From NCBI RefSeq assembly GCF_053078305.1, contig NZ_CP166879.1: a stretch of DNA of 64,000 nucleotides; one strand, 5' to 3'. Position numbers: made by a program. Below, piece after piece: positions 54,001 through 60,000 of the stretch. The number at the start of each line of letters is the position of its first letter. Within the stretch, counting starts at the first letter, position 1.

Positions 54001-57000
54001 AAGCGATAAAGCGATAACCCTCAATAAACTCCCATCCCGCACTGGATTGCCATGTTGTGTGGCGTTCAAATTGCGAGTTGTCGTCATTACGCACCGCGCC
54101 TTCTAACGTAAAATCGCCAAGTTTTTGCAGTCCTGTCAGATAAATCCCCGTGTTACGCTGATCGTAACCTTTTGGCAGATATCCAGTTCCAGGTGAAGTG
54201 GATTGTTTTTGCCAGTCGATACCAGCGCCAACATTACCGTGGCCGACTGTGACGCTATTTGTCCACTGTAGATTGTATTGTTTCATCTCATCCCGGTTAG
54301 CTGATGTGTCATAGCGTCCATAATGTGGATCGTAGTTGTAATCTTTACTATGGCTATAACTGGAAACAAGTTGAGATTGCAGTGTTTCACCAGCGTAGCG
54401 AAGACCTGCATCCCAGCTTTGACTATAAAGTTTTCGAGTATCAATCAGTGGAGAACCGGGAGAGTACCAGGCGTCATATTTAGTTCGGTTATCATAGCCG
54501 TAGCCACGAACAAATCCGCTCCACGTATCAGATAAGTTATGTTCAAGTTTGCCATAGAATGTTTTACTTAAAAAACCGTCTCTGTCTGACTGTGGTTGCA
54601 TCCCTGTACTGCCATAGGCAACAGCATCAAACCCCCTAGTATAGGTATAATCACCAAGAAGTGTTACACGGGTATTTTCACCAAGTTGCAGATGAGTGGA
54701 TATATCGTAATGTTGATAACTATTACTTCCCCATCCTGCGGAAATTTCAGTGCCAGTATTCTCACGGGATGTAATAATATTTATCACTCCGCCAATGGCA
54801 TCTGAACCATAAATTGCTGAACGTGGCCCACGGATATATTCTATACGCTGCACTAAAGCGACGGGAAACTGACTCAGGTCTGCAGCTCCACTGACACCCG
54901 CTAAATTCAGGCGCACTCCATCAATCAATACCAGAGTGTGGTTAGAGTTTGTCCCACGAACAAAAATTGTTGAGAGCTGCCCTTCACCCCCATGCTGAGA
55001 AATTGCAACGCCAGGCAAACGACGCAGAACATCATTTACAGAAGAAACCTGCCAGCGATCTATATCTTCTCGTGTCACAATAGTTACAGGAGCAAGCACG
55101 GTACTTAATGGTTCCTGAAAACGGTTAGCAGTAACAACGAGAGTATCCGGAGGGGTATCCTGTGCCCAGACAGAAAAGGCTGTGACGGAATACACCATTA
55201 GAAACCAATATTTTTTAATCATTGTAACGCATCCACAACAGAAGAAGAATATCGCAGTTACCATCGATAGTAAGTGATGATGAGAACCAGATGCGACGTT
55301 AACCGACAGGTCTTCAGACCTGGAAGGGCATCTGAAGATACAAAGAGATGATGATGCCCCCCCACCGGATGACCGTGTCCACATTACGCAATCATCGCAC
55401 CTTTCCTTACCGCTGCGTGTCAGTTTCGGATTCGCACTGGATTCCCTATTAACTCGCAGGACCGACAACTGGATATTACTGGTTGTAACAAGTTACTGTC
55501 CATACATGACTCAAAAATAGGAATGCATGAACACTCGGATCTAATACACATAATATTTTATCGGCGACCATAATAAGAATAAAACATATATATGCTCAAT
55601 TAGTTCTTTGATAGATTTCATATTAAAACCAGTAGAGCCATTCAGCGTGCAGAAAATAAACAATATAATTCTGTCACCAGAACATCCATACCTAAGCTCC
55701 AGTACTTACCAACTTCAGAATCCCATTCTTATCGCAATTGCATGAGCAGTATCTGATTGAATAATGTAAACACCAAATGAGGCCAAATTATTCAGACATT
55801 AAACTAGAACGCCAGTTTGTCTTTCGTTATTCTCAGGTACATTAGTTATAACCTGTTCCGCTCCCAATATACTCGCTAAATAGTAAATCAATGCATTAGC
55901 TCTGCTCGTGTGACTAAAAATCAAATTAATCACATACTGGCCACACTCATCAATAACCACTACCGCTGGAGTGCTGAATTTATTGTTGACCTGAGATGAC
56001 AGAGCCTGAATAGCTATATCTGTAGAGCCAATAAAAATCAGTACCGAATAGTTCGTGTATGCTTCTCGTACCGTCTGAACAAAACCACAGTTACAAGGTA
56101 AAAATCCATCTTCAAGCAAATTTTCGCAAGTAAAGCAGGTTATCGGCAACGTTTCTGCCAGTTGTTTTGCAAGTTGACCGCCTCTTGGGGTCAGGAAAAA
56201 CAGAGCTATAGACTCAGGTTTAACTATACTCATAGATAAAATCCATAGTATTTAAATAGTAACTCGACTTGCCGGGGGACATTCCGACAAGAATTAGCGC
56301 CATTTTAAGAATCTCTACAGCAGATTTAGTGAATCTCACCCTCTCAATTAATCGCTTGTCCAGAGTGTCAAAATCGGTGGAAAAACGAGCCAGCAATTTA
56401 AGAATTGGTCAATACATCCAGATTCTTTACGCACATTTCATGTATAATATCTCTAATATAATCATCTGTTCTCTTCAGCCTATATCGACTATCAACCTCT
56501 GATAATTCTATAAGTACTCTGACACGAACTGTAACTTCAACTTTCCACACAGAATTCCCCAGACAACATCCAACCAGCACTGTGAAAATCTTCCATACCT
56601 TAACTAACCATTCAAACCATCGATGGAACATATTCGCCACCATTAATCCCACCATGATATTGCCCATATAACTCCGACCACCACCAGACACATCACCTCC
56701 ACAGCCAATACGTAACACGCGCCCACTTTGTTGCTTCTGGCGAATAATCCGCTGAATAATATCGATAAAATTGCACACAGGTACAGTCAGTCCGGTGTCC
56801 CGGAAATAACAAAATCAACAAAATGCACCACACACCACACAAGAAATGTAATAACATACTTATTGCCACATTCAACCATCCGATAATCATCATTAATTGC
56901 TGGAAAAATGTATATGAAGATAACCAGGGAAAGTATTTCCCATATGTCTGCAACCAAACTATTGTTGAAATATCCAGTGTCCTTGACCCACGATATTCAT

Positions 57001-60000
57001 ATCTGCGTATGATTTTCCCATGCTCAACCAGAAATATCAGATGAGTAACTGGCTCCTCACAGTAGCCGAGGCAAACCAGACATTTTGCTATTTTGATGCG
57101 TTCCCCAAAAATATACGCCACAGGATGAACGGAACCACGGACATCCTGATGAGTTCTACAGGGATATATCGACTCTCCACATTCAGCATAAATCGCTACA
57201 CAATATGCATTAGTTAACCACCATTGGGCATGCATACCTGTATTCGCAATAAGTGTGGTAACGTAGAATCTATCTACTGTCACATCACTACTAATACAGA
57301 AGCTGTCAGTTCCTGATTTACACTGTTGTGTACGCAAACATCGTTTGACCAGTGGGCTTAAGCTGAGAATTAATGTGATTTTTTCACAGCAGTTACAGGT
57401 AACTGCCCAAACGAACGCCTGAAATCTTGTTGTCATACCCTGCTCCTTGCAGGGTGGTAGGGGTATGAAGAAGCATCTGTACAGACTTTCGGCTGTACAA
57501 TTCTGACTCAACCCACTTCCCACCGAAGTTGTTGAAAATCACCGACAGGCAGGTCTTCTGGCTTAGCTTCTTCCTCACCCGCCCTTCCCAATCTTACGAT
57601 CAGTGGTAATTACGGGGTTGTCAGCATCACAGCAGCGGGGGCTGCGGGGGATTTTCACCCCCTTCCCTGGCATAAATACGCCAAACCTGTCAGGTTATGT
57701 TATGAGCTAACTATATTAGCTCACAACAATTAAATTTTATTAAATATAAATAAAACTACTCTTATCCAAATGGATAATTAACCTCAATGCTTTATTTCAT
57801 AACTAAAATAACACTTGCATAGTTTATCCCAGGAACACTACTATTTTGTTGACCTATGACAATTTATTTCTTCTCTCTGATTTTTATTTCAGATCTAATA
57901 AAATGCCACATATTATAAAAACCGGAAATGGCAAATTATTGTCATTCATACCGATTCCGCAGGCTTGTTTTCTGCAATCTGCTGGCGAAATGCCTGCGGG
58001 GTAATCTGATAAGTCTGGCGAAACACTTTGCAGAAATAGCTGGTTTGCGAGAAACCTAAATTACGCGCAATGCTGGCGATACTCCAGTCACTATAGCAAA
58101 GCAACTCTCGAGCTCTTTCCATCCGTTGCTGATTGACCCATGAATTGAAACCTATTCCCTGATATTTCTTAAACACCCTACAGAAATAGTGTGGACTGAG
58201 ATACACATGTGAAGCAACATCTTCCAGACGCAGGTCATCAGACAAATGAGCATCAATGTAGCGCAACGCTTTTTTCATTTTACTGTCATGGGCATTCGGT
58301 GTACGATTAGAATAAATAGGCTCCTGTAATTTCTGGCTGTCTTTGATCACTACAAAACTAAGCTGTTTTTTAAGGCAGTTTTCAACTATCAGTTTCAGAA
58401 GATCGGCTGCAGCCATCACTCGCGAATAGTCCATTTCAGGAACTTTTCTGAACGCATCCAATAACTGTTGATCAGTCTGCCAGCACTCGTCAACATTGAA
58501 GATGTTAACCAACCCTGCATCACTATAGTCGCGTAAACGAACCTGCCCACACAATACAAACCCGACCAGATGACCCGCAATAACTAAAGGAACCGAAAAA
58601 TCAGTTAACCCGGCATGGCAGCGATAAATACAAGGCTGGTCCAATTTCGAAGCCTCCAGACCACCACAACGATCACTCATACGGCACCGAGCACTCAACT
58701 GTGGGTTCTGCCGCATTAACTGACAAAAGGGAGTGAAATTAAAAAACTCAGAAATTTCATCACCATGAATATTGACCACGACAACAGCCAGACTGGTAGC
58801 TCGAGCAAAATCCTGCGCGATTTTATTAATGAGATCAGAATTTAATGCACTCGCAGAAATCATGATGAACCCCAGGTCAATTATATTTATTACATTTACT
58901 TCACATTATTTATAATATATTTACACAGGAGTAAACATAAAGGACAATATCAAAAACTATCGCGTTACAGGGAGACTTTTTCTCACATCGGGAAGCAGAT
59001 CACGAAATACTATAAATTTATATAACGCTCTGCGATCTCAGATGGATTTTTAATCTAAGTTTCGTATTAATTGCTGGATAAATTTTTACCAATCAGATAG
59101 CGATAAATCGCAGCACCAATACATGCACCAATAATCGGTGCAATAAGGGGAACGATGAAATAAGGAATATCGCGCCCCCCCGTAAAAGCAACATCTCCCC
59201 AGCCTGCCAACCAGGCGAAAAACTTGGGCCCAAAATCACGCGCTGGATTCATCGCAAACCCAGTTAATGGCCCAGTTGAAGCACCTATCACGGCTACCAG
59301 GATACCAATAAGCAAGGGCGCCAGTGGCCCTTTAGGTACGCCGTTTCCATCATCGGTCAGTGCCATAATCAAGCCCATCAGCATTGAGGTAATCACAATT
59401 TCCACTAACGTAGCCTGCCAGACGCTGATAGCCGCCGCAGGATAAGTACTAAAAATACTCGCCAGTTGCAGGCTTTCAACGCTACCACGCACCATATTGT
59501 GCGCCGTCTCGAACTCAATAAATAGGTTGCTATAGAGAACACAGGCCAGAAGTGCTCCACCAAATGCACCAAGGAACTGCGCAACGATATACGGCAATAC
59601 CTTATTCTTTGGAAATGCGGCAAACAACCACAGCGCAATAGTTACAGCGGGGTTCAAATGACCTCCAGATATCCCGGCAGTCAGATACACAGCCAGAGAG
59701 ATTCCCAGCCCCCAAATAATACAGATTTCCCATAATCCCAAGCTCGCACCAGCAACTTTCAGCGCACACAGGCAACCAATGCCAAAAAACAAAAACAGTC
59801 CGGTACCTAAAAATTCAGCAATACATTGCGCTTTTAATGAATCATTCATGGTGATCCCTTGTTAGTTGAGTTATATTGTTTCATTTCCAGCGAATGCGTT
59901 GCTGGCTGTAGAGTACAACTGTCAATAACTATAAAAACTATCTTCTGAAATTTGTTGACAATATAAGTTAAAAATCGTCTGAAAAATTGCTTTGTCATAT

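Follow-up and report, generated by a model that had tools for sequence, protein, structure and literature searches.

Behind pocR in a 64,000-nucleotide (nt) stretch of Escherichia coli DNA (contig NZ_CP166879.1 of RefSeq assembly GCF_053078305.1; hereafter the window) lies the relic 5' end of a pdu-linked cobalamin (cob) operon, which shares a mosaic, mobile island with an intact pdu operon in a Shiga-toxin-type E. coli host. Purifying selection has acted on the whole regulatory head of this operon as strongly as on the functional pdu and pocR genes and has preserved the cobalamin riboswitch aptamer with its B12 box, the leader, the ribosome-binding site (RBS) hairpin, and the start codon of cbiA, while the pieces of cbiA, cbiB, cbiF, and cbiG that follow are pseudogene fragments. 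These fragments hold far fewer stop codons than neutral decay predicts. The reading we favor, at a probability only slightly above even (roughly 0.55), is that the leader and the translated open reading frames (ORFs) of the relic form a gated entry to downstream genes, a position now taken by the btuB unit of a locus of proteolysis activity (LPA) module.

The first-pass annotation of this locus, made from the sequence alone, had placed a B12-riboswitch leader downstream of pocR, and this was confirmed via an RF00174 match of 108.2 bits (gathering score, 31.5) that is not truncated and carries the quoted B12 box at 57562..57548 (all feature coordinates are collected in Table 1). The B12 box reads AGCCAGAAGACCTGCC in the window aptamer. 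Its core helices are identical in 11 further cob leaders from enterobacteria, and the window-specific changes in the variable hairpin preserve base pairs. The RBS hairpin was seen in the centroid fold at a position conserved with other species, and the start codon of cbiA is kept at 57436. Nucleotide by nucleotide, the head can be aligned with its cob counterparts in Salmonella, Citrobacter, Klebsiella, Kosakonia, Yersinia, and Escherichia, and the riboswitch plus leader (57704..57436) is 85% identical at the nt level to that of Salmonella by blastn. Upstream, PocR of the window shares 80-84% amino acid (aa) identity with enterobacterial PocR. A riboswitch of the intrinsic-terminator type was considered and is not supported, given that just one weak, conserved leader hairpin was found.

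The genes behind this head are broken. Relic fragments were mapped by protein-guided local alignment against the Salmonella and Klebsiella genes, with which a nucleotide comparison had been proposed earlier as a check, and this returned collinear homology to cbiA, cbiB, cbiF, and cbiG with the deletions mapped. An alignment of the cbiA relic by MAFFT --addfragments was dropped because it set the whole relic in one block and misplaced its N-terminus. Descent of the first fragment from cbiA is evident in three stretches (aa 1-45, 306-399, and 419-442) that are collinear and lie directly behind the cob leader. A deletion of ~260 codons removed aa 46-305, and by this loss ORF1 came to 247 aa (276 aa if an upstream GTG is taken as the start) versus 459-460 aa in intact CbiA, which bears out the earlier statement that the ORF is about half length. 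A frameshift follows near aa 400, past which ORF1 reads through. We also considered a frame-1 alignment in which cbiA would stay in frame throughout by way of an 18-codon deletion, and rejected this given that the other frame is far better for aa 419-442 and contains a stop.

The first gene had been described as a CbiA N-terminus with a substituted Walker A motif, and it is: AGTGSGCGKTT in the intact protein has become AVTCNCCEKIT, so the GxGxGK[ST] signature of the P-loop is lost. The Cys-rich look of the relic arises from Gly (GGN) to Cys (TGY) changes such as those in the P-loop. VAIYAECG is retained within ORF1. A full two-domain CbiA (~460 aa) is not present, and ORF1 has no Pfam match even at E<=10. 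A conserved full-length relative in other genomes, which would have argued against decay, was looked for among 1.84 billion protein representatives; the matches to ORF1 were identical copies on the same island and two weak CbiA-like matches to the same stretch. A search for diverged same-lineage copies of ORF1 or of the N-terminal domain of CbiG (CbiG_N) found none.

The first-pass annotation had held that only a CbiG-like fragment follows cbiA. The N-terminal piece of CbiG is indeed there, but pieces of cbiB and cbiF survive as well. The cbiB relic is 67-69% identical at the nt level to Citrobacter and Klebsiella cbiB (blastn), and everything between cbiB aa 120 and cbiF aa 223 has been deleted, with cbiC, cbiD, cbiE, and cbiT lost entirely; neither CbiB nor CbiF is left with a complete single-frame coding sequence. 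ORF4 is 59% identical to aa 1-137 of Salmonella CbiG (tblastn, E=1e-49), and the cbiG relic is 66-68% identical at the nt level to the cob operon (blastn). The middle and C-terminal (CbiG_C/CobE-like) domains of CbiG, a protein of 351 aa when intact, have no homology anywhere in 55200-57600, and no cob gene later than cbiG is detectable downstream of the relic. Three large deletions and at least two frameshifts separate the relic from an intact operon. For the spacer behind ORF4 (55606-55798), cobU, cobS, cbiP, the rest of cbiG, the E. coli relic-cobU spacer, and trmA were tried as sources and gave no credible match; a 26-aa CobS match straddles the LPA boundary and was taken as chance.

The extent of decay was measured at invariant sites, i.e., only those sites at which eight intact operons of enterobacteria agree (Salmonella, two Klebsiella, three Citrobacter, one Escherichia sp., and Kosakonia), with pduA, pduB, pduC, pduF, and pocR as functional comparison genes. 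The cbi relic fragments have changed at 179 of 680 such sites (26.3%), and the functional pdu and pocR genes pooled at 86 of 2879 (3.0%; 4.8% for pocR). The riboswitch aptamer has changed at 2 of 109 (1.8%) and the leader plus platform at 1 of 35 (2.9%), so that aptamer and platform together stand at 3/144 versus 179/680 in the relics (Fisher P=2e-13). The boundary is sharp and falls at the ATG, given that the first 20 cbiA codons already carry changes at 8 of 33 invariant sites (24%). Change in the leader is as low as in the functional pdu and pocR genes, which marks the leader as held by purifying selection and not as lagging in decay. The earlier remark that the cis-regulatory RNA outlives the enzymes understated this difference.

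The substitutions in the relic are those expected of sequence freed from coding. Changes from GC to AT number 122 (0.31 per GC site) versus 32 from AT to GC (0.11 per AT site) and make up 68% of the relic substitutions, with C>T and G>A dominating. Invariant sites have changed equally at codon positions 1 (24.7%) and 2 (24.9%), while second positions are nearly untouched in the five functional genes; at G/C sites of the relic, positions 1 and 2 stand at 0.32 versus 0.45 at position 3, a difference that is not significant (P=0.06). Among the fragments, CbiG_N is the least decayed, with 22% of invariant sites changed versus 32% in cbiA. The AT-richness that had been attributed to mutational decay is accounted for by this bias: the aligned relic codons are 40.5% GC versus 56-64% in the same codons of intact orthologues, and the relic mutation spectrum implies an equilibrium of ~27% GC, with GC-to-AT changes ~2.7 times as frequent per site as AT-to-GC changes. 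Given the deletions, the frameshifts, the missing P-loop, and substitutions that are biased from GC to AT and blind to codon position, the four fragments are pseudogenes. A 7-bp insertion within the relic of one island copy agrees with this status. Separately, the coding strand of the cbiB relic (56400-56800) contains 28.9% G, 11.5% C, and 34.7% T, a GC skew of +0.43. Strand asymmetry through transcription-associated deamination was considered as its source; C>T exceeds G>A modestly on the coding strand (0.28 versus 0.19 per site), which does not fully account for the skew.

Four long ORFs (ORF1 to ORF4) tile the relic head to tail, and the 425 codons that align in their ancestral frames contain a single in-frame stop. 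In a simulation that applied the invariant-site substitution spectrum to the intact genes, 12.5-13.2 stops were expected (P<=2e-4). When the 490 observed differences were instead reshuffled, 17.1 stops were expected and none of 20000 permutations reached the observed value. Taken gene by gene, the stop counts are low as well (P 0.002-0.009). The frame of the ATG stays open for 247 codons, while the other frames hold a stop every ~16 codons. The last ~97 codons of ORF1, which are out of the ancestral frame, also stay open. The TGA of ORF1 lies in GGAGGTGATGTG, and a GTG in the frame of ORF2 follows one base later, at 56691.

The same design recurs on the Escherichia chromosome. A chromosomal pdu locus with a cob relic was found in 645 of the 5426 complete E. 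coli genomes searched, and also in E. whittamii. Its layout is pocR, a riboswitch of 107-111 bits, a 44-codon ORF from the cbiA ATG, a CbiG_N ORF of 144/145 aa, a ~130-nt spacer, and cobUST; the TGA of the 44-codon ORF overlaps the ATG of the CbiG_N ORF (ATGA). Four deep Escherichia alleles keep the lengths of both relic ORFs with only 3-nt indels, despite 15-24% nt divergence. Between these alleles the relic ORFs are 76-85% identical versus 89-94% in pocR and cobU, and the riboswitch is 92-97%, the leader 91-99%, and the mini-ORF 76-95% identical. The ratio of nonsynonymous to synonymous change (dN/dS) is 0.44-0.61 in CbiG_N and 0.24-0.77 in the short ORF, compared to 0.03-0.05 in pocR and 0.13-0.18 in cobU. 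Annotation by the Prokaryotic Genome Annotation Pipeline (PGAP) marks the Escherichia riboswitch and calls the CbiG_N relic a 'hypothetical protein'. A third case is the Enterobacteriaceae bacterium RIT691 (L063 10967-11778), in which a 103-bit riboswitch is followed by a cbiA ATG fused in frame to a CbiG_N relic with 30% aa identity to CbiG, with nac as the next gene; it is apparently a second orphan cob riboswitch. Compared across the three lineages, the CbiG_N relics share only 22-40% identity. Stop-poor, tiled relic ORFs recur in three lineages, and this is the unexpected property of the locus.

We hypothesized that what is selected in the relic is its translation and not any enzyme activity. 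Adenosylcobalamin (AdoCbl) would close the hairpin over the Shine-Dalgarno sequence AAGGAG and block translation from ATG 57436, as in the Salmonella cob leader, and ribosomes would run through the relic ORFs when B12 is lacking. Translation may in this way carry the decision of the switch downstream by shielding the transcript from premature termination or decay. The genes so served would be cobUST in the chromosomal Escherichia loci of the same design, which on the island would have been replaced by the LPA btuB. No convincing intrinsic terminator was found between ATG 57436 and the btuB leader. Today the leader could give btuB an additional input that is driven by propanediol and PocR and repressible by B12, or it could be a switch that was orphaned recently. 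It is our speculation that a PocR-driven, B12-repressed boost of btuB would be sensible for a propanediol user that is unable to make B12. A broader proposal, which we hold tentatively and consider clearly less probable than the gated entry itself, is that decay behind a translational riboswitch can preserve open frames, with dead first genes kept as translated spacers in which missense changes and in-frame deletions are tolerated and stops are removed. If this were true, there would be three instances of it (the island relic, the Escherichia chromosomal relic, and RIT691), and the output on the island could be propanediol-induced, B12-repressed expression of the B12 importer btuB.

Several observations count against a gated entry. 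The promoter region is conserved less than the aptamer and only moderately, with 10 of 64 invariant sites changed (15.6%). The permutation overstates the expected number of stops, given that some of the differences arose before inactivation, and the invariant-site simulation is the safer figure. About 135 nt after ORF4 lie outside any listed ORF. The relic mRNA is G-rich and C-poor (C 11.5-18%) and therefore a poor Rho substrate, which weakens the version of the reading that rests on Rho polarity. RIT691 has no cobUST behind its relic. Firing of the promoter, translation of ORF1, and transcripts into btuB are all predictions from the DNA. Finally, btuB has a promoter-like site and a riboswitch of its own, one island copy (L005) carries a 7-bp insertion (TGTGTGG) that shortens ORF1 from 247 to 218 aa, and K-12-type E. 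coli have lost the leader (an IS5 lies upstream of the CbiG stub). K-12-type strains still use cobUST, so cobUST are not strictly in need of entry from the leader.

These last three points also favor the alternative that the locus is purely historical, in which the switch was kept for downstream genes such as cobUST until the LPA junction formed recently and is now an orphan without a role, its open frames being leftovers or chance. The LPA junction is young, given the 98.7% identity to other LPA islands and the abrupt end of this homology at 55605, and the island copies are 99.9% identical and therefore silent on present selection. We consider this alternative possible and the strongest of the competitors, although doubtful as a full account, given that history alone leaves the stop deficit unexplained both here and in the Escherichia and RIT691 relics, and that RIT691 retains its riboswitch with no cobUST behind it. 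It shares its history with the gated entry and differs only about the present.

The open frames could also mean that the relic ORFs encode functional small proteins, either a stand-alone CbiG N-domain or a Cys-rich protein derived from CbiA. The constant length of the CbiG_N ORF (144-145 aa) in the island and the four Escherichia alleles, its Escherichia dN/dS below 1, its place as the least decayed piece, and the VAIYAECG retained in ORF1 would fit such a role. However, codon positions 1 and 2 change equally and not significantly more slowly than position 3 at G/C sites, and the CbiG_N sequences of the three lineages are just 22-40% identical, which together make this explanation unlikely. 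Against it also stand the state of ORF1, which lacks a Pfam match and a P-loop, has ~97 final codons out of frame, and is truncated in one copy, and the lack of homologues of similar length elsewhere.

We rate as slightly less probable still that the riboswitch survives because it has its own role in regulating pdu, for example as a B12-sensing RNA transcribed from the cob promoter and acting on pocR or pdu, with the fragments irrelevant. A trans-acting RNA of this type would have an analogy in Listeria and Enterococcus, where regulatory RNAs are under riboswitch control. The Pdu diol dehydratase uses B12 as its cofactor, a strain unable to make B12 would profit from sensing it, and a riboswitch lies beside pocR in every pdu-positive, cbi-negative locus examined, including RIT691. 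Yet the RBS hairpin and the start codon, parts of a translational platform, are conserved though needless for action in trans, and the open frames would be left unexplained. A recent recombination joint at the ATG, bringing a well-kept pdu-pocR-riboswitch segment up to an old relic, would suit a mosaic island and a divergence that shifts within a few bases of the ATG, but it is very improbable given that the relic is collinear from cbiA codon 1, which would demand a joint placed precisely at the start codon, that an identical step occurs at the same place between Escherichia alleles, and that the island pdu and pocR form a deep separate lineage, so that the leader is no younger than the neighborhood of the relic.

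The gated entry, favored over these alternatives, takes its proposed mechanism from a known system. A review names the S. typhimurium cob operon as being under cobalamin riboswitch control and gives RBS sequestration as one mode of such riboswitches (PMC5282855). In Salmonella enterica, the cob leader combines a PocR-dependent promoter with an AdoCbl riboswitch and translational control of cbiA. The locus has the same gene order (pdu, pduF, pocR, leader, cbiA) and shares the B12 box, the leader block, and the hairpin that covers the Shine-Dalgarno site, but 20 working genes from cbiA to cobT stand behind its leader, whereas the window has 1.6 kb of fragments of four genes and then unrelated DNA. 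The Escherichia chromosomal relic shares with the window the pdu-pduF-pocR arrangement, the riboswitch, a short ORF from the cbiA ATG, a CbiG_N ORF of 144-145 aa, and relic ORFs that evolve fast yet stay open, and the two leaders share a few derived states. It differs in being smaller, with ~15 cbiA codons, no cbiB piece, and working cobUST behind it, and in lying at the chromosomal cobUST-nac site, unlike the window relic on its island. Between the two, the riboswitch is ~81-83% identical, and the relic is undetectable by blastn. We considered that the island locus might be the sister of the Escherichia chromosomal locus, for which some shared derived states would speak, and did not adopt this because a neighbor-joining (NJ) tree gives it no support. 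In the NJ tree of PocR, PduF, PduB, and PduC proteins, the island forms a deep branch of its own, and the identity of its PocR to that in GTDB species representatives does not exceed 84%. Orphan or relic riboswitches in reduced or decaying genomes likewise leave a recognizable cis-regulatory RNA beside inactivated targets; in the window, by contrast, the degree of conservation has been measured and equals that of working genes, and the remnants of the targets still form long open frames.

A cob-operon relic with a retained riboswitch is therefore of a known kind in the E. coli gene pool, and this locus is a new example; the literature was searched for a description of it and none was found. 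E. coli is said to have long been known, from work by Lawrence and Roth in 1995/1996, to be without cbi genes and yet to keep cobUST. What the locus adds is a measured case in which a riboswitch and its platform are under full purifying selection while the enzymes decay (2% versus 26%), and it shows that a regulatory RNA can outlast its original targets in selective life. From the decayed fragments, the neutral mutation spectrum of an enterobacterial lineage can be read cleanly. The scarcity of stops, repeated in the Escherichia chromosomal relics, suggests a rule for operon erosion behind translational switches, and such stop-poor ORFs would be of wider interest if they reflect selection for translation. 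In annotation, the Cys-rich ORF of 247 aa should be entered as a cbiA relic and the 144-aa 'hypothetical protein' as a cbiG relic, and neither as a new protein. Island-bearing strains can use propanediol only if B12 or cobinamide is imported, which fits the neighboring extra btuB.

The island is assembled from several parts. Positions 1-48000 of the window are an SPI-7-type integrative element, 97-99% identical to E. coli sequences. Within this integrative conjugative element, a STAXI RNA (RF01728, 76 bits) lies at 20508-20673 on the minus strand. Positions 48000-55605 are 98.7% identical to the espI-AraC-iha-btuB block of the selC LPA in 22 complete E. coli genomes and agree with the LPA module in gene content, order, and near-identity; the homology breaks off at ~55605. 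In its published description, LPA encodes EspI and Iha, and btuB lies beside iha (PMC6920203). The window thus has the same block as the LPA of Shiga toxin-producing E. coli negative for the locus of enterocyte effacement, but in LPA islands a ketoacyl-ACP synthase stub follows the block where the window has the cob relic and pdu. Island btuB is 76.8% identical at the nt level to E. coli chromosomal btuB over 55531..53364, and for this reason strains with the island carry two diverged B12 receptors. The segment 53341-55531 is a captured chromosomal piece with the promoter, riboswitch, btuB, and first 35 codons of murI. Transposase-like ORF fragments at 53084-53284 (minus strand) and 50242-50419 flank iha and btuB and mark boundaries of the mosaic module; PGAP gives an IS66 fragment at the equivalent LPA position.

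At megablast level, none of the 5426 complete E. coli genomes has the relic or this pdu allele. The island locus does occur in draft E. coli assemblies, with exact PocR matches in 81 index blocks; GCA_001902675.1 is one assembly that bears the island, and one source names the CbiG_N ORF 'hypothetical protein [Escherichia coli]'. Four other island copies are 99.91-99.98% identical to the window and differ in the relic by one single-nucleotide polymorphism (SNP) and one 7-bp insertion; the insertion and a G>T SNP both lie in the relic of the L005 copy, at window positions 56842 and 57270. Over 11 kb, the island copies have nine variable positions in all.

Table 1. Features of the cob relic, its regulatory head, and its neighbors (window coordinates unless another locus is named)
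Feature	Position	Strand	Remarks
pduA-D	from ~60300	plus	divergent to pduF/pocR
pduF	59849..59067	minus	
pocR	58863..57946	minus	intact, 305 aa; regulator of pdu and cob; Pfam PocR and HTH_AraC
pocR-cob intergenic region (cob promoter region), 240 nt	57706..57945	minus	partly conserved; aligns with conserved blocks of 9 species
Cobalamin riboswitch aptamer, RF00174	57705..57531	minus	full length; 108.2 bits, model 1-189 of 189
B12 box GCCAGAAGACCTGCC	57562..57548	minus	same as consensus of enterobacterial cob leaders
Leader and expression platform, 94 nt	57530..57437	minus	includes conserved CAACAACTTCGGTGGGAAGTGGGTTG block
RBS-sequestering hairpin ACCCTGCAAGGAGCAGGGT	57455..57437	minus	encloses AAGGAG, abuts ATG 57436
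ORF1, 247 codons and stop	57436..56693	minus	from authentic cbiA ATG; spans cbiA relic and runs ~97 out-of-frame codons into cbiB relic
cbiA relic aa 1-45	57436..57305	minus	45% aa identity
P-loop relic AVTCNCCEKIT, residues 11-21	57406..57374	minus	AGTGSGCGKTT in intact CbiA
cbiA relic aa 306-399, amidotransferase part	57265..56984	minus	frame of ATG; tblastn E=1e-14, 36% identity
cbiA relic aa 419-442	56973..56902	minus	shifted frame, holds a stop; GNTFPGYLHIHFS vs GNTFASYLHVHFA
cbiB relic aa 1-19	56852..56796	minus	one frame
cbiB relic aa 33-119	56766..56476	minus	second frame; stop between the two parts
ORF2	56778..56398	minus	covers cbiB relic aa 33-119
ORF3	56396..56220	minus	holds cbiF relic aa 224-254 (56312..56226)
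ORF4, CbiG N-terminal domain relic, 144 aa	56233..55799	minus	aa 1-137 homologous; Pfam PF11760 only
Spacer between relic and LPA-homology boundary	55798..55606	minus	no match to Salmonella cob proteins, E. coli relic-cobU spacer, or trmA
btuB unit of LPA module	55481..53378	minus	next downstream on strand; own riboswitch and btuB
Second cobalamin riboswitch	55481..55288	minus	45.5 bits
btuB	55222..53378	minus	
Escherichia relic example	L002 9004-9966		also L013, L019, L027, L089, L090

Other remnants of the cob operon were seen in the genomes compared. The 3' third of a CbiG relic lies before cobU in 5397 of the 5426 complete E. coli genomes. In K-12-type genomes, the riboswitch and pdu are deleted beside the CbiG relic stub, which in one of them (L093 1502-1645) is annotated as a partial 'cobalamin biosynthesis protein' pseudogene by IS5. 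In Hafnia paralvei (L053 11266-12974), the final third of cbiF and a full-length cbiG stand directly behind pocR and a riboswitch of 110 bits, with cbiA through most of cbiF missing at this place. Escherichia sp. MOD1-EC7003 (L046) has intact cbiA-cbiG; leader and genes appear most similar to their Klebsiella grimontii counterparts, suggesting that this genome acquired a complete cob/pdu locus.

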